Position numbers and translations under genes: made by a program | The notes under the pieces: model-generated | Told to the model about the DNA's origin: nothing | Databases searched by the model: none | What the model saw: only the letters and a program-made list of their open reading frames with translations | From: an uncultured Candidatus Micrarchaeota archaeon | GTDB taxonomy: Archaea; Micrarchaeota; Micrarchaeia; Norongarragalinales; CAINOH01 | Direction of reading: 5' to 3' | Length of the DNA stretch: 64,000 nt | Assembly: GCA_903851445.1 (NCBI GenBank) | Contig: CAINOH010000012.1 | Span: 8,353 to 72,352, forward strand | Part shown: positions 2,401 to 52,927 of the stretch, in pieces | How the letters are laid out: each line of letters starts with the position of its first letter | Position numbering within the stretch: position 1 is the stretch's first letter

Positions 2401-2590
2401 GCCGGGGTAGCTCAGCCTGGTTAGAGCGCCAGACTCATAATGCCCTGCGCCGCACGCAAGCCCATGATACGAGGCGCGGCTACGGGAAATGAAGAGACTT
2501 ATGGGTGCTTACAGGCATCGATGGCGCATGATGAGACTCTATGAGTTTTGAGCCATCTGGAGGTCGGGAGTTCAAATCGCCCCCTCGGCA
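2401..2590 (+). tRNA. tRNA with CAU anticodon (elongator Met or Ile2), interrupted by an intron of about 115 nt at position 37/38
   Basis: Exon 1 is GCCGGGG-TA-GCTC-AGCCTGGTTA-GAGC-G-CCAGA-CTCATA. Exon 2 is A-TCTGG-AGGTC-GGGAG-TTCAAAT-CGCCC-CCTCGGC-A. The acceptor pairs with one G-U and the T stem has one A-G mismatch. The anticodon stem is not the GGG/CCC initiator type. Confidence 0.85.
2440..2554 (+). other. tRNA intron with bulge-helix-bulge boundaries and box C/D-like elements
   Basis: CUCA (nt 32-35) pairs with UGAG at 2549..2552, flanked by the 3-nt bulges UAA and CCA, as expected for a BHB with cuts at 37/38. The intron also contains AUGAUGA (2528..2534), UAUGAGU (2540..2546) and UUGA (2548..2551). 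Confidence 0.6.
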
Positions 2591-21078: not shown

Positions 21079-24000
21079 CTATGCCGCGGCCTCCTCGTTC
21101 ATGCGGATGCCGTAGAACAGCACCGCGCCAATTACAAGAAGTACCGCTATTGCCAGGCCGTAGCCTGAAAAGCCTGCTGCGCTAAAGAATCCGGTGAGGA
21201 TCCCTGTACCAGGCTCGACATTTGTCGCGTCTATTGAGAACGGCGCGCTGGCAGTCCTGCCAATCGGGTCGACGATTGCGATCGAGGCCTGGTAGACGCG
21301 CTTCTGGAAGTTGTCCGTGCTCATTGCAACGGTGAACTCGCGCATGTCTCCTGACCGGATGGTTGCCGCGCGCGGGTAGTACTGCGCTTGCCAGCCTTCC
21401 GGCAGGCTGACGTCAGCCTCGTAAAGCAGCGCGCGGTCCTCGTTGTTCTTGACAAGGAACGAGGCGTTGGCTATGAAGTACGTGCCGTTGTAACTATAGT
21501 CTATCTGCGGCGCGTAAATCGTCACGTCCGGAGTGTTGCTTGACTGCGACTGAGAAAGGGTTGAGCGGTTGATTGCATACAGCGAGGACGCGTACTGCGA
21601 GCTTGCGTTCTTTGCGCCGATTGTCGCAAAGCACAGCTGCTGCTGCTTGACTATTGTGCCGTCCTTGCGTATGTACAAAGTCACGTAGTTGGCCGAAAGC
21701 AAGCCTGTCGGGTTGACGGACACCGTGACGATTTGGCTTGAGTACCTTGCGAAGTTGTTGATTACTGGAGGCGAGACTATCGGGTGCAGGTAGCCGTTGT
21801 CAGTTACCTCAACCGCGTAGTTTGCGGTCTCGCCGTTGTTGTAGAGCGTTATCGGGTACTGCACGCCGATTGCGATGTTGGGGCACCCCGAGAAGCCTAT
21901 TGAGATGTCCGAGCTTGATGCGCCACTGGACAACGCCACCGTGTCGGTTGCGGTCCCGAACGGAGCGTTTGCGCGTATGACTATTGGGATTGTGTAGAAC
22001 TGTGCGTTGGGCACTGTTGCGCAGAACGAAAGGTCGTCGCGCGTCTCGTAGGATGAAAGGCGGTATTGCTGGAAGTTGAAGCTCCCGCCAACGTAATACG
22101 GCCCTGAATCGTAGGACATCGTCACCGTGCCCGAGTCCGGGCCGCGGTTCTCCACCTGCATTGCATAGCAAACGCGCTGGCCAATCGCAGCAGAGCGGAG
22201 CTTGTCAACCAGGTTGAGGTGAATGCTGCCCGAGACCGAGGCGCAAATCGGAATCTCCAGGGCCTGCGAGGACGCGGAGTTGCCGTTGTTGAAGTTGACC
22301 ACTCCAAGCGAGCCTCCTGAGAAGCCGTCGGCAAACGCAGCTGTGACCGAGATTATCTTCTCCTCGCCTGCTGAAAGCGAGACCGAGGTCGGGCCCGAGA
22401 GCGTGACCTGCGAAATCGAAGAGTAAGTAACGGTAACCGTAGTCGATGACTGCTGGCTGTTCTTGAGCTTGATCTGGTAAGTGCCGGAAGTCGTGCCGCA
22501 CGAGGGCGAGGAATAAAGCGAGACGGTAAAGTCGCCGCCGAGCGAGAGCTTGTCAGTTGAAGCGCACGACCCGCTCTGCGACTTGACGGTTACGTCGTAG
22601 TCTCCTGCGGGAACGTTCGCTATTGATGCGCTGATGTCGCCCGAGCTTGTGGATACGCCGCTGGCTGAGCCGACTGTTGCGCCTGCCTTGTCGCGCACCT
22701 CAATTGTATAAGTGCCGGACACGCGCGTGCCGTTGCCGTCAGCAAGGTATCCAGTGACCTGCACACCGGATGCTGTTGAGGAGAACTTTGCAGCGCCGTT
22801 TACGAGCCGAAGGTCGCACGTTCCTGCAAAGGTGCTTGCGCCTGTTGCGTATGAAGATACCACCGGGCAGGAAAGGTACTTGGCGTCAACCTGTGACGAG
22901 TAGGTCCCGTCGCCGAACGGCCCGGGTATGGACAAAGTGTAAGTGCCGTCAAGGAGCGAGCCGACGTAGGCCTGCTTGTAGAGGTTCCCGTCCTTGAATA
23001 TCTTCACAGTGACATTCGCAGCTGAAAGCGGGGTGCCGTGGTTGTACACGGTTCCCGAAACAGATGCCGGGCTTGCGAACCCCTTCTGCGAGAACGCGGA
23101 CGCAACGGTCACGTCGCACGAGGCCAGTGCCACGACCACGTTGGACGCGGCTTGCGGGCACGAATTGAATTGTGCAGTAGCGTTTATCCGATAAGAGCCG
23201 CTCGAAAGCGAACTTGGGACTATCCAGTTTGTCGAGAACTCGCCGCCCGAGGCGCTGACCGGGATGGTTGCCTGGGTGTTTCCAAGCAAGTCCTGGATGC
23301 GCACGTACACGGTGGTGCCTATTGGCAGGTTGTTGTTGCGGATTTTACCATTAATCGTCATCATCTCGCCGCTCGCGTACTGGTACTTGTCGGTCTCGAC
23401 GCTGATTGCGGTGTTGCAGGTATCGACGTGGAAGTTGACTGTCGCGCCAGCAGAGTCGCAGCCCGAAGTGCAGGCCACGCTGCCACTTGGAAGCTCGATG
23501 TTGCACACCACGTCCATCGAGTAGGTGCCCTGCTGCTTGAAGTACGACTGGTTGACGTGCACCACTCCGGTGTACTCAAGGTTGGGCAGCACGTCGAACG
23601 GGTACGCGCCCACGTAAGTGCGCGAAAGTCCGGGGCCGGTAAGGTACGCCTTGCAGTCAACCGGCGGGTCGTTCTTGCAGAACTGGTTTGTTTCCGCTGA
23701 AATCTGCAGGTCGTTGTGCTCAAGGTATCCGCGGACAACACACGCGTTATCCCCTCCGAGATTGTGGTTGCACGGATTTACATTGGAAACTTCGGGGTTG
23801 GTTATTCCGTAGCGGATGCAGTAGTCCTTGACCACGCCGGTGCAAGTCGAAGAGAGATAATAATACTTGTAGCAATCTATTCCGCAGATTTTCTCGCCTG
23901 CAGAGCAAGTGTAGCCGCCTGACGGGTTGGAAGGCGCCTGGTACTGGCACTGGCCGTTAGCGTTGCAATAGTAGTTGGAGCCGTAAGTGCTCTGGCAATA

Positions 24001-25101
24001 GTCATTCGTGCACGAAGTGCTTGAACCGGAGTTGCACTTTCCGTTGGAACAGCCGTTGGTGCAGGAATATCCGGGATTGTTGTACTGCCCGTTCTGGCAT
24101 ACGCCCTCCGCAAGAGTAATGCCATCGGACAAGCAAGTATCATAGTAGGTGCTTGAACCTACCTGCACGTAACCATACGTGTCTGGAGAAAGTCCCCCGT
24201 CTGAATCGTAGCACGAGCCTGTTGAGCCGGAATTGCACGCGCCGTTGGAGCATCCGTTTGTGCAGTACTCGGTGGTGGACGCGTAACCGGTCCCGCTGCA
24301 GTAGTATTCGGTGAGCGTGTTGCCGGAGCAATAATCGGAGTGAGAATAATAGCTGCCTGAATTGTAGCCCCAAACGTAACTGCCCGAATCGGAGCACGAA
24401 TCATAGTCATAATCCCAGTCGCTTACGCAAGTATTGCCGTTCCAGTGCCGAAGATAGCCGCAGTTGTGGTCGCAATACTGGTAGCGGCAGGTGTTGTCGC
24501 TGCACACTTCGTCCCCGCCGCAGTCGCCATCTGAATAGCAATAGCCTGAGAGGAGCCTGCACTGGCCATTGCGCAACTCTTCATACCACTTACAAGTTGG
24601 CTGGTTGTAGATGCAGACGTTGCGGCTGGTGTCGCAGTACTGGTTGGAGCCGCAGGACGGGTTGTTGTACTTGCATCCGGTGCAGACCATGTCGCCTGAG
24701 TTGAAGAGCAATAGATTACTGTAGGTGGTTTCCTGGCGGTATTTGACCAGGTTTGACTGCCGGACGCTGATGCGGAAGAGCGACTCCGCGCCGCTTCCTG
24801 CGAGGCTCTCGTCATTTACGGAAGTGATTTCGAGGTTCTGCATGCAAAAACAGGCAGTGTCGTAAGGGACCGTGCGCGTCTGGGACTGGTTATAGGAAGT
24901 GCAGGAAAGCGTGCTGCGACAAAGCGAGTCGGTTGGAAGGAAATAAGTGCAAGCCTGGCCTGCAGTGTCGCACGTTGCGCCCGGAGTGCAGGAAGAGTAT
25001 GCGGATGCCGACGGGAGCGCAACGAATATTGCGGCCGCGACCAGAAGAAGCCCGATTAATGGCAAGAGGAAATTTACGAAAGCCTTGCGAGAAAATGCCA
25101 T
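21079..25101 (-). CDS. very large cell-surface protein (signal peptide, Cys-rich N-terminal modules, Ig-like repeats, C-terminal TM anchor)
   Basis: 1340 aa. Signal peptide ...ALPSASAYS. The first ~500 aa are Cys-rich, with CKYNNPSCGSNQYC and the duplicated C(T/S)NGCSNG(A/K)CNSGS motif plus YDSDGG. These are followed by beta-rich repeats. C-terminal TGILTGFF, a TM helix, then RMNEEAAA. Confidence 0.8.
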   Translation of the reverse strand: MAFSRKAFVNFLLPLIGLLLVAAAIFVALPSASAYSSCTPGATCDTAGQACTYFLPTDSLCRSTLSCTSYNQSQTRTVPYDTACFCMQNLEITSVNDESLAGSGAESLFRISVRQSNLVKYRQETTYSNLLLFNSGDMVCTGCKYNNPSCGSNQYCDTSRNVCIYNQPTCKWYEELRNGQCRLLSGYCYSDGDCGGDEVCSDNTCRYQYCDHNCGYLRHWNGNTCVSDWDYDYDSCSDSGSYVWGYNSGSYYSHSDYCSGNTLTEYYCSGTGYASTTEYCTNGCSNGACNSGSTGSCYDSDGGLSPDTYGYVQVGSSTYYDTCLSDGITLAEGVCQNGQYNNPGYSCTNGCSNGKCNSGSSTSCTNDYCQSTYGSNYYCNANGQCQYQAPSNPSGGYTCSAGEKICGIDCYKYYYLSSTCTGVVKDYCIRYGITNPEVSNVNPCNHNLGGDNACVVRGYLEHNDLQISAETNQFCKNDPPVDCKAYLTGPGLSRTYVGAYPFDVLPNLEYTGVVHVNQSYFKQQGTYSMDVVCNIELPSGSVACTSGCDSAGATVNFHVDTCNTAISVETDKYQYASGEMMTINGKIRNNNLPIGTTVYVRIQDLLGNTQATIPVSASGGEFSTNWIVPSSLSSGSYRINATAQFNSCPQAASNVVVALASCDVTVASAFSQKGFASPASVSGTVYNHGTPLSAANVTVKIFKDGNLYKQAYVGSLLDGTYTLSIPGPFGDGTYSSQVDAKYLSCPVVSSYATGASTFAGTCDLRLVNGAAKFSSTASGVQVTGYLADGNGTRVSGTYTIEVRDKAGATVGSASGVSTSSGDISASIANVPAGDYDVTVKSQSGSCASTDKLSLGGDFTVSLYSSPSCGTTSGTYQIKLKNSQQSSTTVTVTYSSISQVTLSGPTSVSLSAGEEKIISVTAAFADGFSGGSLGVVNFNNGNSASSQALEIPICASVSGSIHLNLVDKLRSAAIGQRVCYAMQVENRGPDSGTVTMSYDSGPYYVGGSFNFQQYRLSSYETRDDLSFCATVPNAQFYTIPIVIRANAPFGTATDTVALSSGASSSDISIGFSGCPNIAIGVQYPITLYNNGETANYAVEVTDNGYLHPIVSPPVINNFARYSSQIVTVSVNPTGLLSANYVTLYIRKDGTIVKQQQLCFATIGAKNASSQYASSLYAINRSTLSQSQSSNTPDVTIYAPQIDYSYNGTYFIANASFLVKNNEDRALLYEADVSLPEGWQAQYYPRAATIRSGDMREFTVAMSTDNFQKRVYQASIAIVDPIGRTASAPFSIDATNVEPGTGILTGFFSAAGFSGYGLAIAVLLVIGAVLFYGIRMNEEAAA

Positions 25102-44204: not shown

Positions 44205-45113
44205 ATGGAAACCGCGTTTGTCCAGGCCCCTCTTGGCTTGCAAATAAACCGGCCCAACACCCCGACTGTTCTTGGCAGGGAGAAGGCCCAGCCGTTCTTC
44301 TACTCCGAGACGCCCCTCATCAAGTCCGGCGAGCACAACCTCAAGAACATAGTCATATCCGTCCTTTCCCGGCAGTGGCCGCTTTCCGCCAGGCGCGTTT
44401 TCAGGGAAGTGTGCTCCGACAACTTCCATATCACCTACCAGGGAGTGCACAAGGCGCTCCGCCAGCTCCGCGAGCAGGGAATGGTCCGCCGGACTGATGG
44501 AGGCCACCAGCTTGATGCGCAGTGGATTGACCAGCTTGAGGCTTATTCGGGCTTCCTCCGGGCCAACTACGCGATGGGCAAGAACACCGACTTCTACAGG
44601 ATGCCGCCAGGCGAATCCGCCTGCCTGTCCTTTGACAACTACTTCCAGGCGGTTTCCGCAATACTTGAGATTATGGGCCGCGAGCACGAAAAGCCCGGCA
44701 GGGACGACGTTTACCTCCAACTGTCCCACCCGTTCCCACTCCTTGGAATCCCTGCGCGCACGCTTGAGCGGCTGAAGCGCCACGCTAGGACGCACTCGTT
44801 CCGTGCGACCTACCACTCCGACTCGGCCTGCGATTCGGCCTTGTGCAGGATGTGGGAACAGGCGGGAGTTAAGGGGAAAATCAGCCGCAAGCACCAAGGC
44901 CGCGGCAACTACAATGTCCTGACCAGGGGCATGCTCATCCAAATCATGCCCTCGCCACAGTTTGCCCGCCGCGCCAACGCAATCCTCTCCAAAGGCGGCT
45001 CCGAAAGCCTGCTCGCATACACCCAGGCCAGCCTCGACCCCTCATCCAAGACCCTGGTGACAATCACCAAGAGCCCCGGGTTGGCGGACGAGATTAGGAA
45101 GGAAAAAAGGTGA
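44205..45113 (+). CDS. winged-helix protein with an uncharacterised C-terminal domain (paralog A)
   Basis: PLIKSGEHNLKNIVISVLSRQWPLSARRVFREV...ITYQGVHKALRQLREQGMV aligns by eye with the N-terminus of 45682..46575. Confidence 0.6.
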   Translation: METAFVQAPLGLQINRPNTPTVLGREKAQPFFYSETPLIKSGEHNLKNIVISVLSRQWPLSARRVFREVCSDNFHITYQGVHKALRQLREQGMVRRTDGGHQLDAQWIDQLEAYSGFLRANYAMGKNTDFYRMPPGESACLSFDNYFQAVSAILEIMGREHEKPGRDDVYLQLSHPFPLLGIPARTLERLKRHARTHSFRATYHSDSACDSALCRMWEQAGVKGKISRKHQGRGNYNVLTRGMLIQIMPSPQFARRANAILSKGGSESLLAYTQASLDPSSKTLVTITKSPGLADEIRKEKR

Positions 45114-45122
45114 AACTGCCTA

Positions 45123-45374
45123 ATGACACAAGATTATAATCCACGAATAGGCCAAATAATATCCGGGGATTTCATGTACGTCAACGACCTGAAAAAGGAC
45201 GCGGCCACTTCAATGCGAAAGGAGGCCCTGAGGCTTCGCAAGGACTACCTGGATTACGCTGAGGATATGCGCCTCTTTGCAGACCCCGACTTTTGGAAGG
45301 CGGTTGAACAAGTCGAATCGGGAAAAAACCGCAAGATGAGCCTCGCGGAACTCAAGAAGGAAATCGGACTGTAA
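45123..45374 (+). CDS. putative antitoxin of the RelE/ParE module
   Basis: 83-aa ORF 14 nt upstream of the RelE-like gene. The C-terminus MSLAELKKEIGL is typical of antitoxin tails. Confidence 0.5.
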   Translation: MTQDYNPRIGQIISGDFMYVNDLKKDAATSMRKEALRLRKDYLDYAEDMRLFADPDFWKAVEQVESGKNRKMSLAELKKEIGL

Positions 45375-45388
45375 GGTGAAAACCTGAG

Positions 45389-45640
45389 ATGCCCGAATTC
45401 ACTGCCGCGTATTCCGACCGTTTCATAAGCGACCTGAAAAAGCTCGACCGGCGACAGAAAACGCTTGTTTTCAACAGGATAGAAAAAATCCTCTCCAACC
45501 CCGAGCTTGGAAAACCGCTTCACGCCCCGCTCAACGGGTTCAAAAGCGAGCGGCTGGAGTGCTATAGGATAATCTACAAGCAGACCGGCACAACCATAGA
45601 ATTTGCCTGGCTGCAGCACCGCGACGAAGCATACCGATAG
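45389..45640 (+). CDS. relE: RelE/ParE-family toxin
   Basis: F..DLKKLD......I.......P..G.PL.....G....R...YRIIY.....I.F......R..AY pattern. Confidence 0.8.
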   Translation: MPEFTAAYSDRFISDLKKLDRRQKTLVFNRIEKILSNPELGKPLHAPLNGFKSERLECYRIIYKQTGTTIEFAWLQHRDEAYR

Positions 45641-45681
45641 CTTGACAACCAATAAGAACCTCCTTTTGCCTAGAAACATAC

Positions 45682-46575
45682 GTGGACAAGGCAATCCAAC
45701 CACCCAAGCCCAGCGGCCGCGAACCCGCCTTTTCGGAGCTTCCGCTAATCAAGTCAGGCGAGCGAAACACCAAGAACCTAGTTATCATGGTCCTGGCGGG
45801 AGAGTGGCCGCTTTCAGTGCAGGACATCTACGACACCATACACGAAAACTACGACCCCAAAGTCACCTATCAGGGAGTACGAAAAGCAGTCCTCCAGCTT
45901 ATCGGGCAAGGAATACTTGAAAAGAATGCCAAAGGCCAGTTCAAGATTAGCCACAAGTGGGCTGAGAGCATAAACCGTTTTTCTGAAGAAATCCGCGTGA
46001 CCACAACTGCAGAAGGCGGATCGGAAATCACCAGCATGCCGCAATACTACAGCAGATCCTACGAATTTGAAGGAAAACCGGCAGAGGCGTACTATTGGGC
46101 GGCAATGCAACTAGTCAAGGCCTGGGAAGCAGACAAGTCAAGAAGAAAGCTAGTGACCTGCATACAACCCCACGCAATCCCACTGACAATTATAAAAAAC
46201 CAGGAATACTGCGCGCTAAAAAAAATCTCCAGTGACGGGGACCATTACATAGCCTGTCCCTCAAACACCGCCCTGGACAAGCTCTTTGTTGGCGTATTCA
46301 CCCAGATAGGCGCAAAAACCAAGACCGGCTGCAAAATATCCAAAAAGTGCGACTTGGCGGTAATCAACGACTACATAATAGAAATCTACTTCCCAAACGC
46401 GATCCGAAAGAAGATAGATGACGCGTTCAAAAAGAACAAAAAAATCGACGACAAAGCCATAGCCGCAATACACGACAGTCTCATAGGCTCGGATGCAAAA
46501 AGCAGAGTGGTAATAACAAGAAATAGGGAAATAGCGGAAAAGATAAGAAAAAAAATACTAGCAGAAGTACATTAA
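45682..46575 (+). CDS. winged-helix protein with an uncharacterised C-terminal domain (paralog B)
   Basis: PLIKSGERNTKNLVIMVLAGEWPLSVQDIYDTI...VTYQGVRKAVLQLIGQGIL. GTG start. Confidence 0.6.
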   Translation: MDKAIQPPKPSGREPAFSELPLIKSGERNTKNLVIMVLAGEWPLSVQDIYDTIHENYDPKVTYQGVRKAVLQLIGQGILEKNAKGQFKISHKWAESINRFSEEIRVTTTAEGGSEITSMPQYYSRSYEFEGKPAEAYYWAAMQLVKAWEADKSRRKLVTCIQPHAIPLTIIKNQEYCALKKISSDGDHYIACPSNTALDKLFVGVFTQIGAKTKTGCKISKKCDLAVINDYIIEIYFPNAIRKKIDDAFKKNKKIDDKAIAAIHDSLIGSDAKSRVVITRNREIAEKIRKKILAEVH

Positions 46576-46606
46576 AGCATCTATTTTGTTACTATTAGGT
46601 AATTTG

Positions 46607-46873
46607 ATGACACGGCAAATTCAGACAAAGACTCGGCATAACCCTGCGCTCAAAACAATGTTGACAATAGCTAATTACATCTATGAATCCGTAACGCCAA
46701 TAAGCCGAGACCAACTCCTCAAAAAAATGAAAAAACGTGTGACACGTCAGACATTGAACACAATGCTTAAGCACCTTGAAAAGTGGTGCATTGTTTGCGA
46801 GACAAAATATGGTTTTGTTTGGACGTTCAACTCAACCAAGAAAGGTTCAACAACTAGAAAAAGACGAAAATAG
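46607..46873 (+). CDS. small putative winged-helix protein
   Basis: MTRQIQTK...ISRDQLLKKMKKRVTRQTLNTMLKHLEKWCIV. AT-rich, convergent with the LuxC-like gene. Confidence 0.4.
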   Translation: MTRQIQTKTRHNPALKTMLTIANYIYESVTPISRDQLLKKMKKRVTRQTLNTMLKHLEKWCIVCETKYGFVWTFNSTKKGSTTRKRRK

Positions 46874-46909
46874 AGTTACGAGACTAACTACACAGTTGAA
46901 CAAAAAACA

Positions 46910-48310
46910 CTACCTGCTTTTTACCCACCGCACAAGTCGAGATAGAGGATATATGCCTTCGTGCGGAGCGCCTGTTGCAAAATAGCCCATTCTACCTATG
47001 ATGGTTACCCGGTCAGCACCACGTTTTGTTATGTCATCCCGTAATTCTACGATTCTTTTTTCAGGAAAAACCGCAACGGTTTGCACACTTTTGTCTATGT
47101 GATGAATTGCGTCCTTCAGGTCGGGTATTTCGAATACATATAACACCCTACCTAGGGGATGCCGTTGCGTTCGTTGCACTTTATCGGATAATATTATCGT
47201 CCACTCAGTTTTTTCTGACTCGTAGACTTTCTCGCCATAGAACTTTGCCAGTATTCTTTCGTGGCTTATTGCGGCATGCCTATCCCCGCGGGAAAATCCT
47301 TTTGGAAGCCTTTTGGATTCTTCAACCAAGCTTACTGAAAGCGAGTCGCAGAATTTTTCCGCATTACCCTTTCCTTCCACGAACGCCAATTGCGGGCTGT
47401 GGCACGCCTCTTGGTCGAACAAAACCAGGTCGTGGGCGGCCTTGTCCGTGACTGACGAAAGCACGTTCTTGCTCTCAAATGCCTCCCGGCCGATGAACTG
47501 CATGCTTCTCCTCGGGCCGAATTCCAATAGTTCGGTTCCGGGTTTGGTCTTTGCCTTTGTTGACTCGATAACTTCCTTTCCACCCCAAACGCAGATTGCA
47601 TTGGCTTCGTGAATTAACTTTTCTTCAACCAAGGACCCGTGTGGCCAATAAACAACAGAAGTGGTCTTGGTTATTGGATGATCCTGATCTACATCCAGAA
47701 AAGAGGACGCCAAGTAAACCGATGTGACTAAGTCTCCGCTGGCCATTTTTATTATGTTGCTGTTTTTCGTCAAGCTGCCGCGGAGCATGCTGATTGCACT
47801 GATTGGCGGAGCATTTCCTGCAAGGACGTGCAGAACTTTCCCGCGTGGTTGGGCGTGGACGTAGATTGAATCAACTTTTAGCCAGTCGTCAAGAAAAGCT
47901 TCGTCTTGGATTTCTGATTTTATTGTCTGGGATATGAACTGCTTGGAAAAGATTCCAGCTATATGGTCGTAGGCGTGCTCTATCATTTCCGAGCTGTAGC
48001 CCGAATTTCTTTCAGCCAACAGCACAGCGTCCTTTCTTAGGTCGTAGTTTCGGCTGCCCCAAAGCTTGCCCACCTTTACGTAGAAGTCGATGATTTCTTT
48101 TATTGAAAGCTCGTGCACGTCCGGGGTGACCGATATTTTCTTGATGTCTTCGTCAGAAATTTCAGGTAGATGGAAAGAAACTTCCCCGTCCTTGGTGTGG
48201 GACTTTGTAGTTATATCCTGGCCGAACCTTTTTTCGGAATTTATGATTAGGGGCAGTCTGAAGGTAGTCTGATGACTGCCGCTGAGTTCTACAGGATTGA
48301 CTTTTGCCAT
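46910..48310 (-). CDS. LuxC-family acyl-CoA/acyl-protein reductase (aldehyde-forming, ALDH-like)
   Basis: 466 aa. The overall pattern LHVLAGNAPPISAISMLRGSLTKNSNIIKMASGD...VWGG...FDQEACHSPQ (candidate catalytic Cys) matches LuxC-type reductases. Confidence 0.75.
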   Translation of the reverse strand: MAKVNPVELSGSHQTTFRLPLIINSEKRFGQDITTKSHTKDGEVSFHLPEISDEDIKKISVTPDVHELSIKEIIDFYVKVGKLWGSRNYDLRKDAVLLAERNSGYSSEMIEHAYDHIAGIFSKQFISQTIKSEIQDEAFLDDWLKVDSIYVHAQPRGKVLHVLAGNAPPISAISMLRGSLTKNSNIIKMASGDLVTSVYLASSFLDVDQDHPITKTTSVVYWPHGSLVEEKLIHEANAICVWGGKEVIESTKAKTKPGTELLEFGPRRSMQFIGREAFESKNVLSSVTDKAAHDLVLFDQEACHSPQLAFVEGKGNAEKFCDSLSVSLVEESKRLPKGFSRGDRHAAISHERILAKFYGEKVYESEKTEWTIILSDKVQRTQRHPLGRVLYVFEIPDLKDAIHHIDKSVQTVAVFPEKRIVELRDDITKRGADRVTIIGRMGYFATGAPHEGIYPLSRLVRWVKSR

Positions 48311-48330
48311 TCAATCACTAGAATACATAA

Positions 48331-49440
48331 TCATTTTTGGATCTTACTCATGAACTCTTCGAGCCTTATGGCGCAGCCTCTTGCCCCGGCACCTTGGGCT
48401 CTGCCCATGTGCTGGATTATCTGACCGGTCCTGCCGCATTCGCAGGTGCCTTCTGTTACTTTCCCCATGTCGCCAGTCATGCAGAATGCTGGATAGGATT
48501 GGATTATTGAGCTCATGTACACAAGAAGACCCGTTTCGCCTTCGGCTACGTCCTCACTTGTTTTTTCAGGGTTTCTTACCGAAATGTAGAACCACGGTGG
48601 CACGTGCTTCTTGTGATACTCACATTCTGGAAGCATGGTAAATATGTCAGTCAGCCCCAAGTTGTCCCTAATCTGCGAGCCGTCAACTCCAAATACCTTT
48701 GACACGCGTTCGATAAAGTTTTCACGCGGAACTTCGCCTTGGACGCGTTTCCAACCGCCAGTAGTCATCAACCTTGACTCTGGATCCAGCTTGATTTGCT
48801 TGTTGTTTGCTTCCAAGTATTCCACTATGCGCATGAATACGAATGGCGGGCCGTAAATGTGTCGGGGCCGCGTCTTGCAATTGGATATTTTCTGTATTAC
48901 CTGCTCTACATCAAACTCGCCACCGGCTACTAGATAGTCAACGTTTTCAGGCGGAAGACCAATGGTTCTCAATGTCGCCTGCATGCCCTTGACAAGGCCG
49001 GTGTCCGAGTCTTTTGGGGTCAAGAAAAACACGAACCCATCCTTTAGCCCCAGTATTTCGGTAAACGAACGCCTGTTTGCGAAATTTGTACGATCCATGC
49101 TAATCTTGTCCATGCTGAACCATACTGGCTTGGGGGAGGTGGTGCTGGAAGTGGTGCTTTTGAAAACTATGTTCGCTGCTGGCACGCTGATTATGGGCGC
49201 GTCCATATCCCTAAACGCATCTGATGGTACGGGCTGAATCTTGTTTAAATCGGAATAACTCCGAATATCGTCCGGGGCGACATGGTAGAGATCGCAATAA
49301 CGAGTATACAAGGGGCAGTGCTTATAATGGAACTCGAATATTTGCTTGAAGACCTTGAAACGCCATTCCTTTACTTGCTCCAAAGGCATGCTAAATGGAG
49401 CTTTGTTTCGCAATAGCTTGTCACATTCCCAGTCTACCAT
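48331..49440 (-). CDS. LuxE-family acyl-protein synthetase (ANL-type adenylating enzyme)
   Basis: FKSTTSSTTSPKP (P-loop-like T/S-rich motif), TTGGWKR and a C-terminal CECGRTG. The ATG at 49440 lies 2 nt after the FIST gene stop. The track start at 49446 is a TTG. Confidence 0.75.
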   Translation of the reverse strand: MVDWECDKLLRNKAPFSMPLEQVKEWRFKVFKQIFEFHYKHCPLYTRYCDLYHVAPDDIRSYSDLNKIQPVPSDAFRDMDAPIISVPAANIVFKSTTSSTTSPKPVWFSMDKISMDRTNFANRRSFTEILGLKDGFVFFLTPKDSDTGLVKGMQATLRTIGLPPENVDYLVAGGEFDVEQVIQKISNCKTRPRHIYGPPFVFMRIVEYLEANNKQIKLDPESRLMTTGGWKRVQGEVPRENFIERVSKVFGVDGSQIRDNLGLTDIFTMLPECEYHKKHVPPWFYISVRNPEKTSEDVAEGETGLLVYMSSIIQSYPAFCMTGDMGKVTEGTCECGRTGQIIQHMGRAQGAGARGCAIRLEEFMSKIQK

Positions 49441-49442
49441 AT

Positions 49443-50729
49443 TCAATCACTTCCGAAAACAGCATATCCTATGGATTCATTCAGATAGCCCAGGCCAAGT
49501 TCGGGAGTATAAACCGCTTCCCCGCCGCAATAGCCCAATAAGAATGGAGTACTGTGTAAGTGCTTTAAAATTACGTCCCTTTCTAGGTATATTTCTCGTC
49601 CCAGCGCCATAAATCTTATTGCACACGAAGTGAATAAGCCGAAAATGGGCGCACCTATCTTCGACGCGGCAAGTGCGTCATCAACGGAACTGACCATGCT
49701 GCCGCCATTGATTCGGGCTATGAACGCCTTGCCTTTTTCAACTTTGGTCATCAACAGAATGGAATCCCCTAAAATCATAACAAACGGCCGGATGAAAAAC
49801 TTGCCATTGACATGCAACCCTAATGGAAAGAATGGAAACCGTTTGGTGAATAATTTTTCGTCAAAGAACCCTTCTTGCCAGTTGATGAGCCGTAGAAGCT
49901 CTTCTGCAGCGGGCTTATTGTTAATCTCGTGAATGATACGGCCATCATCACTAACTTTTGTTATTTCAAAAGAAATGCTAGGCTCCGCGCCGTGAGCGAA
50001 ATTAATAGCGGTATTAAGGTCTGACTTGACACCTAGGCAAACCACTGCGTTTGTTAGCACGGTATTATTGTAGAACTGGTAGTTTCGCAGCATTTTTACA
50101 TCATCTATTGCAGAACCGTGCAATAGCTTGCAGTTTGGAATCTCAGCTACAAGCGCGGCCAGCAAGTCATCTTCCCTGCCGGAACCCTTCTGTAGGACGT
50201 ACTGGGAAGTGGAAAAACTGGACATGATTGTCTTTGCCAGTAACTCGGAACGTACAACGGACGTTCGGCCAACAGGCGGAACGTCAAGTATTTCCGTGCC
50301 TGCTGAAAATGTAAAGATGAACTGGTTCTGAAATTTGCTGCTGCTTAAATCTGATTTGATTTTCTTGGCACATTCTTTGGCTGCTGCAGTTGGATCCCGT
50401 TTTATATTGTTTCCAACACAGACGGAAACATCCATGTTAGGGTAAGAGACAGCCATTCCAGCTGCACCGTGTGAATAGCACCCTTGTGGAATCATCAAAC
50501 CGGTAACCGTGCCGCCTATCAATGGGACGTCTTTGGGCAGAAATTCATATATCCCGTCCAATAGCTCCTTGAATCCACCGTTTTCTGCATAGTGTATCGT
50601 GGAGTAGACTATGAAAAATTTTGGTTTGCCAGCCATTTCGGCTAACGCGCGGGACGCTAATTCACGGCCTGCTTCCCGGGCAACCCATTTTTCGCTAAAC
50701 CCTACATTCACAAGAGAATCGTTAGTCAT
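49443..50729 (-). CDS. FIST N- and C-domain sensor protein
   Basis: 428 aa. PKFFIVYSTIHY...PLIGGTVTG...HGAAGMAV... and the C-terminal half (PFFPLG...GEAVYTP) fit the FIST/FIST_C architecture. Confidence 0.75.
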   Translation of the reverse strand: MTNDSLVNVGFSEKWVAREAGRELASRALAEMAGKPKFFIVYSTIHYAENGGFKELLDGIYEFLPKDVPLIGGTVTGLMIPQGCYSHGAAGMAVSYPNMDVSVCVGNNIKRDPTAAAKECAKKIKSDLSSSKFQNQFIFTFSAGTEILDVPPVGRTSVVRSELLAKTIMSSFSTSQYVLQKGSGREDDLLAALVAEIPNCKLLHGSAIDDVKMLRNYQFYNNTVLTNAVVCLGVKSDLNTAINFAHGAEPSISFEITKVSDDGRIIHEINNKPAAEELLRLINWQEGFFDEKLFTKRFPFFPLGLHVNGKFFIRPFVMILGDSILLMTKVEKGKAFIARINGGSMVSSVDDALAASKIGAPIFGLFTSCAIRFMALGREIYLERDVILKHLHSTPFLLGYCGGEAVYTPELGLGYLNESIGYAVFGSD

Positions 50730-50740
50730 TTCGAATCAAC

Positions 50741-51112
50741 TTATTCTTTGACTATTTCAATTAGTTTTCTTCTGGCATTTTCCAAAGTGACCTCGACCAA
50801 ACCTCGGTTGGCTTGCGAAGGCGAAATGGCTATTAGCGCGATTTCCGAACCGGGCAGCACATATAGATGCACCTCGAAATCCTGAAGGCGAAAAGACATT
50901 TCCTCCAGGCCATAATCAGTGTATTGCTTGATGATTTGAAATTCGTTATCTATGGTGTTTTGTAGTGTTTCAATGATGCCCAAGACTTTTGGGTTGAATT
51001 TTTTCTTGTCCGGCACTACTCCTTCCATCCCTTGTTTTGCCACCATGCAGGCATAAACATCCTCGAACTTCAGGAGGTCATCCAATACTGCTTGAATTTT
51101 TTCTATGTCCAT
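50741..51112 (-). CDS. Roadblock/LC7 (MglB-like) domain protein
   Basis: 123 aa with an alpha-beta-beta-alpha-beta pattern: DVYACMVAKQGMEGV...EVHLYVLPGSEIALIAIS is typical of Robl/LC7. Confidence 0.7.
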   Translation of the reverse strand: MDIEKIQAVLDDLLKFEDVYACMVAKQGMEGVVPDKKKFNPKVLGIIETLQNTIDNEFQIIKQYTDYGLEEMSFRLQDFEVHLYVLPGSEIALIAISPSQANRGLVEVTLENARRKLIEIVKE

Positions 51113-51114
51113 AT

Positions 51115-51963
51115 TTAATCAGTCTTTTGCATTAACTCGATTCCACTAGCGCCTATCTGGACGTTTAATTTATTCAGAGGGTGTTTCGTTTGGCGCATCT
51201 TCTCTACTCGCAAGGTTCTAGTGCCTAACATGTCGTTGATTCCAAACTTTATCAGTCCGTCTACGGCATATTCCGAAACCTCATCCAATGACTTTAAATC
51301 CCCGTTTGAATACGTTGCAATCAGGTTTGTTGTGTCGAGGTTTTTCATTTGACGTAGCAACAAGTAGGTTAAACGCTGGTGGGAAACTTGGCTACTCCAA
51401 TTTTTTGTTGAAAGGGACAGCTGGTTATCGTCCGTTCCTTCCGAGACTGGCGTTCGCTCATACTTATACTTTACGTCTTGTTTACGTTTTAGTATCTCTT
51501 CGTCAATATTTGGATCGGATAACGCTAGTCCGCCAAAAAAGGTCACGGGAATTGAAAACATATCAATGTTTGAATTGAACGCCTGTAGACTATCAAAAAC
51601 TAGGCGGGATGCATTTACGTCCTTAATGGCATCGCGTATTTGGTCAAAAAGATTCCACGAAACACGATCTAGGGGAACCTCAACAAATAGCACTTTTCCA
51701 TCGCCTAACTTATCAAAATCCATACCAAACTCCATTGCCTGGCTTTTCAACTCGGCAGAAGTAGACTCAAGAGAAATGTAAACCCCATTCTCTTTTTTCT
51801 TCGCACCTTCAAACAAGTATTGAAGCGCGAATATGGTCTTTCCAGTTCCTGGGCTGCCTAACAGCAAGGTGTTTGAACACTTGGGAAAACCCCCTTCGAT
51901 TAACTTGTCAAGACCAGGAATTCCAGAAGAAACTCTTGCTATCACCATATCCGTAATCACCAT
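51115..51963 (-). CDS. KaiC-like RecA-superfamily ATPase (single domain, with an internal insertion)
   Basis: SGIPGLDKLIEGGFPK, Walker A GSPGTGKT and Walker B RLVFDS. Start at 51963 or 51948. Confidence 0.8.
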   Translation of the reverse strand: MVITDMVIARVSSGIPGLDKLIEGGFPKCSNTLLLGSPGTGKTIFALQYLFEGAKKKENGVYISLESTSAELKSQAMEFGMDFDKLGDGKVLFVEVPLDRVSWNLFDQIRDAIKDVNASRLVFDSLQAFNSNIDMFSIPVTFFGGLALSDPNIDEEILKRKQDVKYKYERTPVSEGTDDNQLSLSTKNWSSQVSHQRLTYLLLRQMKNLDTTNLIATYSNGDLKSLDEVSEYAVDGLIKFGINDMLGTRTLRVEKMRQTKHPLNKLNVQIGASGIELMQKTD

Positions 51964-52054
51964 TTTACAAGAGAATAACATACAACCATTTAAATTACCG
52001 TACAACACAATTCCCTGAAATCAATGAACTTTACGACTGCCCGAAAAAATGACG

Positions 52055-52807
52055 TTACCAAGGCAAGGTAACACCATTATCAGATAACTCATACGCCTTT
52101 ACTCCGCCATTAATTTTGGTGTACCGCATCTTCCTAATCTCTATGGTACGGCTGAGAATATCGTCAACTGAACGCGATTTAAGAGAAATGATGCCATCGA
52201 CAAAAAATTCGCTGGCACTTTCAAATGTGCTATATTCATTATTTACAGGTGCTTCAGAAGTCAGCAGCGTTGTTGTGTTATAATTTCTAATCTCAGCTAA
52301 AAACATTGACAAAAGTTGTTTCATTATTGCTTTTTCAAATACTGGCTTTGGGATTACCGTGCTGAGCCCCTGACCAAAAGCGTGGCTTGCACCTTTCAAA
52401 ACTAGGTTTTTGGAATAGTCTGACAGGGTGGCAAAGTCTGACATGGTGCTCAGGGAGTCAATAACCAATAGGTTCGGCTTAAACTCGCGGATAACATCCC
52501 GTATCTTGTCAACAAATGAAGAGTCTTTTATGATGTCCACATACACAATCCGCAGCTGGTTACTCTTTATCAGGTCATCCATATTCCAGCCGTACAATTT
52601 GCCTTGTGTTATAAGGTCTTTTTCCTTCTGTTCCGTGCTGATGTAAAGCGAACGTAAACCCTTGTTGGAGTTGTTGACCAGGAACTGCATGCAAAGCGTG
52701 CTTTTGCCCGTGCCTGCAGACCCTGAAACCAGAACTAGGTTACCAACAGGGATACCACCAAATAATGAGTCGTCAAGACCAGGGATACCAAAACTGATTT
52801 TATCCAT
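52055..52807 (-). CDS. KaiC-like RecA-superfamily ATPase (single domain)
   Basis: FGIPGLDDSLFGGIPVG, Walker A GSAGTGKS and Walker B LLVIDS. Confidence 0.85.
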   Translation of the reverse strand: MDKISFGIPGLDDSLFGGIPVGNLVLVSGSAGTGKSTLCMQFLVNNSNKGLRSLYISTEQKEKDLITQGKLYGWNMDDLIKSNQLRIVYVDIIKDSSFVDKIRDVIREFKPNLLVIDSLSTMSDFATLSDYSKNLVLKGASHAFGQGLSTVIPKPVFEKAIMKQLLSMFLAEIRNYNTTTLLTSEAPVNNEYSTFESASEFFVDGIISLKSRSVDDILSRTIEIRKMRYTKINGGVKAYELSDNGVTLPW

Positions 52808-52870
52808 ATATTGGGAAATACGTCTAGGAATAAAAGGTTGCTTAAGCTGAAGCAGAAAGTAAACTCAAAA

Positions 52871-52920
52871 CTAGTAGAAAAAATAAAAAAGAAAGAAAAA
52901 GGTGGGGGGTTTACCCCCTA
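52871..52920 (-). terminator. strong hairpin plus long T-tract after the S-layer gene
   Basis: Minus strand reads GGGGG-TAAA-CCCCC-CACC-TTTTTCTTTCTTTTTTTATTTTTT, starting 8 nt after the stop. Confidence 0.65.
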
Positions 52921-52927
52921 ACGGAAC

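Follow-up and report, generated by a model that had tools for sequence, protein, structure and literature searches.

A recurring archaeal gene module in which KaiC-like ATPases, a Roadblock-fold protein and FIST accompany a LuxE-LuxC-type enzyme pair

Why should two KaiC-like ATPases, a small Roadblock-fold protein and a FIST protein be encoded together with relatives of the fatty acid reductase of luminous bacteria? The question is raised by a stretch of 64,000 nucleotides (the window) from an uncultured Candidatus Micrarchaeota archaeon (assembly GCA_903851445.1, contig CAINOH010000012.1, positions 8,353 to 72,352). Six minus-strand open reading frames (ORFs) at window positions 46910-52807 were confirmed from the ORF list and the sequence. 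In the direction of transcription they are:

52055-52807, minus strand: KaiC1, a KaiC-like single-domain ATPase of the RecA superfamily, 250 aa (PF06745, E 1.9e-45).
51115-51963, minus strand: KaiC2, a KaiC-like single-domain ATPase, 282 aa from ATG; the ORF extends to GTG 52008 (PF06745, E 1.4e-44).
50741-51112, minus strand: a protein of Roadblock/LC7/MglB fold, 123 aa, from a small FIST-associated family (AlphaFold2 model and Foldseek, see below).
49443-50729, minus strand: a stand-alone FIST_N + FIST_C protein, 428 aa (PF08495, E 2.8e-21; PF10442, E 6.7e-9).
48331-49440, minus strand: a LuxE-like acyl-protein synthetase, adenylate-forming, 369 aa (PF04443, E 2.8e-40).
46910-48310, minus strand: a LuxC-like acyl-thioester reductase of the aldehyde dehydrogenase superfamily, 466 aa (PF05893, E 6.9e-88).

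We read the six genes as one unit, an archaeal module that would control or scaffold the making of aldehydes from lipid-type acids, and we give this reading a probability of roughly 0.55. The acid-to-aldehyde chemistry of its enzymatic half is well supported by sequence comparison and by analogy with solved enzymes; what is said below of function past LuxE and LuxC chemistry we infer.

The enzyme pair is the firmest part of the picture. LuxC scores 295.6 bits against PF05893 (cut-off 21; positions 1-401 of the 401-position model) and LuxE 138.8 bits against PF04443 (cut-off 24.9; positions 16-388 of 391), so that the names given to both in the initial annotation hold. LuxE carries the S/T-rich loop TTSSTTSPKP, and LuxC the motif FDQEACHSPQ. 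The solved LuxC-LuxE complex of Photobacterium phosphoreum (7XC6) provides a close reference: window LuxC matches chain 7xc6_A over its full length (E 3.9e-65) and window LuxE matches chain 7xc6_E (E 4.6e-25). In that system a fatty acid is adenylated by LuxE and bound as a thioester to its Cys364, which lies in a mobile C-terminal loop; the acyl group is then handed to the active-site cysteine of LuxC, which reduces it with NADPH (PMC12041015). Cys356 of window LuxE (ARGCAIRL) aligns with the acyl-carrying Cys364 (QKGCSLSM) and is invariant in 16 homologs. Cys303 of window LuxC (FDQEAC) aligns with the catalytic DQQAC; among 35 homologs it is nearly invariant (at least 90%), and Q300 is invariant. 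Both relay residues are thus present in the window pair. As in the solved fatty acid reductase, LuxE would adenylate a carboxylic acid and load the acyl thioester on its C-terminal Cys356; transfer to Cys303 of LuxC and reduction with NAD(P)H would then release the aldehyde.

The two proteins belong to the families without being orthologs of the light-producing enzymes. LuxC reaches 288.8 bits against the LuxC equivalog NF052251 (cut-off 750) and LuxE 135.5 bits against the LuxE equivalog NF052244 (cut-off 550). None of the six window proteins attains an NCBIfam equivalog cut-off, and all are to be taken as family members, not as orthologs of characterised proteins. No LuxA, LuxB or LuxD equivalent lies beside the operon, as had been observed before; the flanking genes encode an S-layer protein, a ParA-like protein, a ParE toxin and proteins of no family.

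A LuxE-LuxC pair was also found in a Methanocellales metagenome-assembled genome (GCA_028715985.1; locus L007, 5585-12233), where it stands without FIST, Roadblock or KaiC and is flanked by genes for an aldehyde:ferredoxin oxidoreductase (AFOR) and for a B12 radical S-adenosylmethionine (SAM) protein. This gene context likewise points to aldehyde metabolism.

Next, we considered whether the six genes are laid out as a single transcription unit. The initial annotation had described six co-oriented genes with gaps of 46, 2, 11, 2 and 20 nt, and these values are reproduced with KaiC2 starting at GTG 52008 (51115-52008) and LuxE at ATG 49440. The choice of starts matters: from ATG 51963, which begins the 282-aa form serving as database cluster representative of KaiC2, the first gap widens from 46 to about 91 nt, and from TTG 49446 the 2-nt gap between FIST and LuxE becomes a 4-nt overlap. 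Co-orientation and gaps of 2-46 nt are as expected of an operon, and the exact six-gene order is kept in contigs L001-L003, L093, L095 and L099. Since the order recurs in these related contigs, and rearranged forms of it in other lineages, the arrangement is far beyond chance. Three non-coding elements delimit or interrupt the unit:

52808-52927, minus strand: upstream intergenic region, with a hairpin at 52918-52905, T-runs at 52890 and 52883 and a TATA-like TTTTAT at 52835-52830.
51964-52054, minus strand: KaiC1-KaiC2 spacer, with a T6 run at 52049-52044 and ATTTAAAT at 51995-51988.
46902-46907, minus strand: T6 run that immediately follows the stop codon of LuxC, a candidate archaeal oligo-T terminator.

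Both boundaries agree with the earlier description. Upstream lies the S-layer gene (PF05124) with its terminator, in which the hairpin GGGGGTAAACCCCC (52918-52905) is followed by the T-runs; downstream lie convergent plus-strand ORFs, with the T6 run right after the LuxC stop. The motifs quoted there were likewise recovered from the sequence, namely GIPGLD in both ATPases, their Walker A and B motifs, the LuxE S/T-rich loop and QEACHSPQ in LuxC. The TATA-like TTTTAT sits about 28 nt 5' of the KaiC1 ATG and, judged by the archaeal TATA consensus, is a candidate KaiC1 promoter. The KaiC1-KaiC2 spacer possibly holds an internal terminator and promoter as well: given its T6 run and the TATA-like ATTTAAAT, a 1+5 transcript structure is possible. 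In relatives L001-L003 the same junction is tight or overlapping. A sigma-70 promoter scan, uninformative for an archaeon, returned 10 sites against 11.1 expected.

Does the gene set occur outside this lineage? When metagenomes were scanned with an alignment of LuxC, 78 loci were obtained, in which four arrangements were recognized:

Type A: KaiC (one or two copies)-Roadblock-FIST-LuxE-LuxC; the window lineage, L096 (gene order and scores as in L008) and L097.
Type B: Roadblock-LuxE-FIST-LuxC with a convergent KaiC; L098 and L100-L103.
Type C: Roadblock-FIST-LuxE-LuxC with a convergent KaiC; L105-L107 and the Aenigmarchaeota-type L009 and L010.
Type D: (KaiC)-Roadblock-FIST-LuxC without LuxE, then convergent c1 (a protein of no known family, see below); L115, L116, L118 and L119.

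In the loci of KaiC-Roadblock-FIST-LuxE-LuxC order (L008/L096 and L097), LuxC is 50-62% identical to that of the window. Among informative loci, FIST accompanies LuxC in 16/17 cases when LuxC identity to the window is at least 48%, in 3/10 at 39-48% and in 1/16 below 39%. KaiC is present in all 21 informative loci that have both LuxC and FIST. Seven type-C loci have a polyprenyl synthase gene after the convergent KaiC, and about ten Thermoplasmatota loci have a more distant polyprenyl synthase homolog a few kilobases upstream of the module. The gene set is therefore no peculiarity of one genome: its co-occurrence was found across phyla by the neighbourhood survey. The pairing of the module with an aldehyde-forming reductase recurs, rearranged, across several archaeal phyla.

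Viewed from the Roadblock-like protein, the picture is different. A scan of species-representative genomes with this family confirmed 115 relatives, and 79 loci were retained from them; the window's own genome is not among these representatives, and the best match was 51%. Most loci belong to Thermoplasmatota, the others to Altiarchaeota, Micrarchaeota, Aenigmatarchaeota and Nanohaloarchaeota. When all ORFs were searched with phmmer, FIST was found directly downstream of Roadblock in 59 of the 67 loci with room for it. Of 75 loci, 41 have KaiC upstream, and 31 have it within 150 nt. These associations extend over four or five phyla. Neither LuxE nor LuxC occurs in any of the 79 loci. On these three counts, the stable core consists of Roadblock and FIST, often with KaiC, and LuxE-LuxC would be one among several interchangeable reductive partners of that core.

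Could a KaiC-Roadblock-FIST cassette and an unrelated LuxE-LuxC pair merely have come to lie side by side on a mobile island? The genes do belong to a region of distinct composition, as judged by GC content at third codon positions (GC3):

45123-52807: low-GC island comprising the six genes, two genes of no family convergent to them and a toxin pair of ParE type.

GC3 of the six operon genes is 0.44-0.57 (0.42-0.57 when the convergent ORFs 45682-46575 and 46586-46873 are taken together with them), against 0.64-0.81 in flanking genes; the ParE pair at the island edge has 0.61-0.68. GC content of the module is 5-8 points under that of its flanks in L001, L093 and L099, whereas in other lineages (GC 0.31-0.48) module and flanks are alike. 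Because module GC falls below the flanks in the window lineage only, the data agree with horizontal transfer from a donor of lower GC content, and the Micrarchaeia lineage probably acquired its version of the module in this way. A chance juxtaposition would agree with such a foreign island edged by a toxin pair, with LuxE-LuxC lacking FIST in Methanocellales and in many lower-identity loci, and with Roadblock-FIST being mostly free of LuxE-LuxC among species representatives. However, the linkage survives at least four gene orders, one of them with FIST inserted between LuxE and LuxC, and spans host GC contents of 0.31-0.54. FIST is retained almost throughout the closest LuxC clade (16/17), and the FISTs linked to LuxE-LuxC are monophyletic. 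We regard an accidental association as very improbable.

We then examined the non-enzymatic proteins of the unit. The 123-aa protein had been called Roadblock/LC7, and this call fails at the level of sequence families and stands at the level of the fold. There is no PF03259 match; Pfam and NCBIfam give no match at all, Pfam gives none for 43 relatives either, with E values allowed up to 10. Neither the protein alone nor its profile has any match among PDB sequences, Roadblock chains included. Its AlphaFold2 model, built from 56 homologs, has a predicted local distance difference test score (pLDDT) of 92.7 and a-bb-a-bbb-a topology. Foldseek gives 94 matches in the PDB with E no higher than 0.001; at their head stand Roadblock and MglB proteins with template-modelling (TM) scores of 0.66-0.80, first among them an Asgard Roadblock (7f8m_B, E 8e-7) and MglB (6hjm, TM 0.75-0.79). 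The top matches have E values of 8e-7 to 1e-5 and TM 0.7-0.8 at about 15% identity. A HMMER scan of 1.84 billion representatives found just 81 relatives (as 50% identity representatives) and did not reach canonical Roadblock proteins, from which we conclude that the family is small and discrete; a word-indexed search gives 567 relatives.

Roadblock-fold dimers are platforms for NTPase binding. An MglA-type Ras-like GTPase is not encoded in the operon, where the neighbouring NTPases are KaiC-like; the GTPase gene that L001 has at a distance of about 6 kb is part of the Oap cluster and is unlinked to the module. In the family D18, A21 and C22 are invariant, and a C-terminal helix NRGLxEVExENARR is nearly so. 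Two 142-aa relatives, P0076 and P0080, carry the precomputed Pfam label PF27410, which is absent from the Pfam scans made here.

Both ATPases are KaiC-like with intact Walker motifs, as initially proposed. They score 155.5 (KaiC1) and 152.7 bits (KaiC2) against PF06745 (cut-off 26.6), with Walker A GSAGTGKS and Walker B LLVIDS in KaiC1 and GSPGTGKT and LVFDS in KaiC2. Pairwise alignment gives only 26% identity between them and shows that KaiC2 has about 40 extra residues inserted behind Walker B. The nearest solved structures are KaiC (8zn5, E 1.5e-35 with KaiC1) and the archaeal single-domain proteins PH0186, PH0284 and SSO2452; ArlH/FlaH is also among the matches. Neither protein qualifies as a circadian KaiC: they are single-domain (250 and 282 aa) and not CI+CII proteins of about 500 aa, no KaiA or KaiB was found among nearby ORFs, and they score 99-107 bits against the KaiC equivalog NF006799 (cut-off 408). 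Two KaiC copies upstream of Roadblock occur also in L011, L025, L075 and L080.

P-loop ATPases close to a ParE toxin might suggest anti-phage defence or another toxin-type system. PADLOC indeed matched both ATPases to mad8, at levels generic for P-loop proteins (E 2.8e-6 and 3.9e-4; 18-25 bits). It gave no match for FIST, Roadblock or LuxE and a marginal one for LuxC (PDC-M02B, E 8.6e-4, 16 bits), and the partner genes of the module are metabolic reductases. A defensive role thus has next to no likelihood in our view.

The FIST protein, for its part, exceeds the Pfam cut-offs in both domains, in agreement with its first assignment (PF08495, 76.7 bits, cut-off 23.2; PF10442, 36.4 bits, cut-off 28.5). 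Stand-alone FIST-FIST_C proteins such as NosP are auxiliary sensors that regulate partner enzymes (PMC8846402). The window protein is no NosP ortholog, with 66.1 bits against the equivalog NF041558 (cut-off 450) in a partial match to residues 183-376. Its identity to annotated bacterial nosP genes is 23-26%. A plasmid-borne origin found no support, distant bacterial NosP-like proteins at this level of identity being the only matches. The AlphaFold2 model (pLDDT 93.1) is best matched by the FIST domain of human FBXO22 (8ua6_C/8ua3_C, E 6e-9, TM on target 0.53-0.58) and, after it, resembles Toblerone-fold (cyclic amide) hydrolases and chorismatases (TM 0.26-0.45). Near-invariant residues are H46, C84, D100, K110, R185, D209, N216, Q218, C369 and E404. 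Together with the conserved residues of the Roadblock-like family, they could build an interface or a ligand pocket. In two loci (L062:10372-14393 and L086:7626-11614) a single Roadblock-like gene is followed by three tandem FIST paralogs, and copies within one locus are spread over different clades of the FIST tree.

If LuxE-LuxC is one partner among several, which are the others? We took a census of 145 ORFs, from 50 loci, that lie no more than about 4.5 kb downstream of FIST. The recurrent families were as follows:

Geranylgeranyl reductase (GGR) family: 37 ORFs (TIGR02032, E values up to 9e-61; PF22578).
Acyl-ACP reductase (AAR)-like proteins of about 318 aa: 17 ORFs, resembling long-chain acyl-ACP reductase TIGR04058 and the PigE N-terminal reductase domain NF053554.
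c1, soluble proteins of about 415 aa: 20 ORFs, no known family.
c3, proteins of about 200 aa with 5-7 transmembrane helices: 9 ORFs, two invariant Asp-rich motifs, no family match.
B12 radical-SAM C-methyltransferases: 5 ORFs (TIGR03975).
Double Lrp/AsnC regulators: 5 ORFs (HTH_AsnC-type and HTH_24).

Protein c1 always lies beside the AAR-like reductase, or beside LuxC where LuxE is absent, and often comes in two tandem copies (alignment A4; L020:12850-14103 and 19 further loci). It was tried as a hidden LuxE/ANL homolog and rejected, with an hhalign probability of 0.1%. Profiles of c1 and c3 found no match in PDB sequences, Pfam or NCBIfam. Strand-like KxY/RxY motifs of c1 recall ABBA prenyltransferases, a candidate relationship only. 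Likewise a candidate only is the prenyltransferase-like character of c3, which has invariant KxxDxxxD and DExxND motifs (alignment A5; L008:10376-10933 and 8 further loci); in L008 it directly follows LuxC on the opposite strand.

A neighbor-joining tree of 75 FISTs was compared with these partners. Every FIST linked to LuxE and LuxC falls in one clade. Its sister clade holds the FISTs linked to AAR and c1, with those linked to LuxC and c1 nested inside, and FISTs linked to GGR or radical SAM only are more basal. Micrarchaeota FISTs are split, that of the window lying in the LuxE-LuxC clade and those of L080 and L084 among GGR-linked sequences. Because the FISTs of a single phylum fall in different clades according to partner, the grouping tracks partner enzyme over taxon.

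These observations bear on the main rival explanation, in which FIST and Roadblock are working subunits of the enzyme: FIST would, for example, bind, generate or hand over the carboxylate in the role of LuxD, and the KaiC-like proteins would be assembly or remodelling factors. FIST clades that follow the partner enzyme agree with it, and in type-B loci (L098, L100-L103) FIST sits between LuxE and LuxC. No LuxD equivalent lies near the window operon, the structural neighbours of FIST beyond FBXO22 are enzymes (Toblerone-fold cyclic amide hydrolases, chorismatase), and further points in its favour are the many near-invariant polar residues of FIST and the invariant Cys22 of the Roadblock protein. 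On the other hand, the TM values of FIST to these enzymes are low, and those FIST proteins that have been characterised act as sensors or as receptors for protein binding (NosP and CdpA, PMC8846402; FBXO22). Moreover, Roadblock-FIST stands also beside chemically different enzymes (GGR, radical SAM), so a general regulator fits better than a dedicated catalytic subunit. We consider the subunit explanation rather unlikely, though it is the strongest of the competitors.

We therefore return to Roadblock-FIST and KaiC as a control or scaffold module. FIST would pair with the Roadblock-fold protein, which would form dimers, and the two together with one or two KaiC-like ATPases would gate or scaffold the reductase post-translationally, by protein-protein contact. 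FIST would detect a small ligand or a cell state that sets the gating. The module encodes no DNA-binding domain. The substrate is likely a lipid-type acid, acyl or isoprenoid, a point we hold more weakly; it is suggested by the GGR, polyprenyl synthase and AAR-like genes that adjoin the sister systems. The idea that the sensor and ATPase genes control or scaffold a carboxylate-to-aldehyde reduction was already expressed in the initial annotation. Comparative genomics now supports it, and it is still something that we infer.

Several points weigh against this interpretation. Contact of FIST, Roadblock or KaiC with LuxE or LuxC is hypothetical and deduced from gene context. KaiC is missing beside Roadblock-FIST in about 45% of non-Lux loci, and in the window itself the T-run and TATA-like box of the spacer could uncouple KaiC1 from the other five genes. 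FIST could, given its Toblerone-fold likeness, be catalytic or a substrate carrier instead of a sensor. As to the lipid connection, most GGR, AAR and c1 neighbours are convergent (tail-to-tail) to Roadblock-FIST and not in the same operon. Their counts are inflated, because much of the signal comes from Thermoplasmatota with inherited synteny. In the window itself, genes for GGR, AAR-like proteins, c1 and c3 are all missing, and there is no isoprenoid or lipid gene. Finally, the co-variation in the FIST tree is suggestive, coming from a single neighbor-joining tree without support values.

We can also put forward, tentatively and with clearly less conviction, a broader proposal. Roadblock-FIST, usually with KaiC-like ATPases, might be an unrecognised system, widespread in archaea, that controls the reductive tailoring of lipid chains, working post-translationally in Thermoplasmatota, Altiarchaeota and several DPANN phyla. 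Its outputs (LuxE+LuxC, LuxC+c1, AAR-like+c1, GGR-family) would be interchangeable, with c1 standing in for LuxE as a new partner that activates or carries acyl groups. In DPANN cells auxotrophic for lipids, of which this Micrarchaeon would be one, the LuxE-LuxC version would turn scavenged host lipid acids to aldehydes under sensory control.

The position of the operon directly downstream of an S-layer gene in the window lineage gives rise to another explanation. LuxE-LuxC might supply an aldehyde or lipid precursor for surface modification, e.g. a lipid-modified S-layer glycan, and KaiC-Roadblock-FIST would then regulate surface remodelling. Homologs of luxC and luxE lie in flagellin glycosylation islands of Aeromonas, where a liposugar is suspected (PMC7874193), and archaeal KaiC-like ATPases are known in surface-structure systems, as the ArlH/FlaH matches recall. 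But the S-layer gene is adjacent only in close relatives of the window; neighbours in L008, L009/L010, L097, L098 and L116 are unrelated. As part of a low-GC island, the operon may have come to lie at this site incidentally, and no glycosyltransferase or sugar-pathway genes were found near the operon. A surface role appears improbable to us.

Several further features of the window deserve mention. The ParE-type toxin (PF05016, E 5e-6) is preceded by an 83-aa ORF, a possible antitoxin (45123-45374 and 45389-45640, plus strand). Two paralogs of about 300 aa with no family match (44205-45113 and 45682-46575, plus strand; 27% identity, E 4e-26) share an N-terminal PLIKSGExNxKNxVIxVL..WPLS motif of winged-helix-like appearance; the second of them lies within the low-GC island, is convergent to LuxC and is kept in L001. 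A 1340-aa protein (21079-25101, minus strand), a singleton at 90% identity, has a weak MG2 (alpha-2-macroglobulin-type) match below the Pfam cut-off. Rfam detects a tRNA at 2401-2590 (plus strand, 44.2 bits); as all 71 model positions are matched over 190 nt, a long intron is implied, as found in archaeal tRNAs. ARAGORN in default mode called no tRNA anywhere in the window.

Full-text literature searches found no description of LuxC/LuxE with FIST, of a relevant FIST and KaiC association, of FIST with geranylgeranyl reductase or of LuxC in Micrarchaeota, although overlap with the 2017 KaiC-hub neighbourhood tables is possible. The belief that the combination is undescribed is thus upheld as far as the searchable literature goes. 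Each domain family was known before; what seems to be new, judging from gene neighbourhoods, is a KaiC-centred setting that combines a new family of Roadblock fold with FIST as partner and with enzymes as its output.

Archaeal signalling outside two-component systems is largely uncharacterised. The KaiC-hub proposal has few concrete pairs of input and output, and the module offers it a candidate sensor (FIST), a Roadblock-fold adaptor, an ATPase and an output that can be assayed. FIST and Roadblock-fold proteins gain a recurring metabolic partner in archaea, and attention is drawn to c1 and c3, families that travel with aldehyde-forming and prenyl reductases. DPANN archaea are generally regarded as being without full lipid biosynthesis. 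The module raises the question of what role a regulated acid-to-aldehyde reductase plays in a genome-reduced DPANN symbiont.

How, then, does the module compare with known systems? The KaiC-hub proposal is reportedly due to Makarova, Galperin and Koonin in 2017. It is cited in PMC5847659 as a proposal that KaiC-like ATPases are signal-transduction hubs in archaea. With hub ATPases such as ArlH and PH0186/PH0284, the window proteins share the single RecA-like KaiC domain, intact Walker motifs, the archaeal host and the company of genes for putative input and adaptor proteins. They differ in output, which in the window is a metabolic enzyme pair and not archaellum, gas-vesicle or two-component parts.

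In the Roadblock regulators (MglB-MglA, Asgard Roadblock, Ragulator/LAMTOR), the a-bb-a-bbb(-a) fold is the same (TM 0.7-0.8 to MglB and Asgard structures), and the gene lies beside NTPase genes. The window protein has, however, no detectable similarity to Pfam Robl_LC7 and represents a separate family of 81 representatives. Its NTPase neighbours are RecA-type KaiC-like proteins instead of small Ras-like GTPases, and its steadiest neighbour is FIST.

NosP-NahK-NarR offers the closest parallel for FIST, with a stand-alone FIST_N+FIST_C protein that has no output domain and a gene beside that of the enzyme to be regulated. NosP is a precedent for an auxiliary sensor working by protein-protein contact (PMC8846402). 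Its partner is a histidine kinase, whereas FIST of the window is accompanied by Roadblock, KaiC and a reductase.

To cyanobacterial AAR and the PigE N-terminal reductase, the likeness lies in the sister loci, whose protein of about 318 aa matches TIGR04058 (E 1.7e-21) and NF053554 (E 2.8e-24) with scores far under the cut-offs. It would be another thioester-to-aldehyde reductase at the position that LuxC holds in the window. Unlike the cyanobacterial AAR genes, the sister-locus genes are convergent, lie with c1 and GGR-family genes and are accompanied by no aldehyde-deformylating oxygenase.

The enzyme pair resembles LuxC-LuxE of Photobacterium phosphoreum (7XC6), with full-length homology, adjacent luxE-luxC order and both thioester cysteines kept. 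In contrast to the lux operon of luminous bacteria, however, the window pair resides in an archaeal (DPANN) host and sits among genes for FIST, Roadblock and KaiC, none of them part of that operon.

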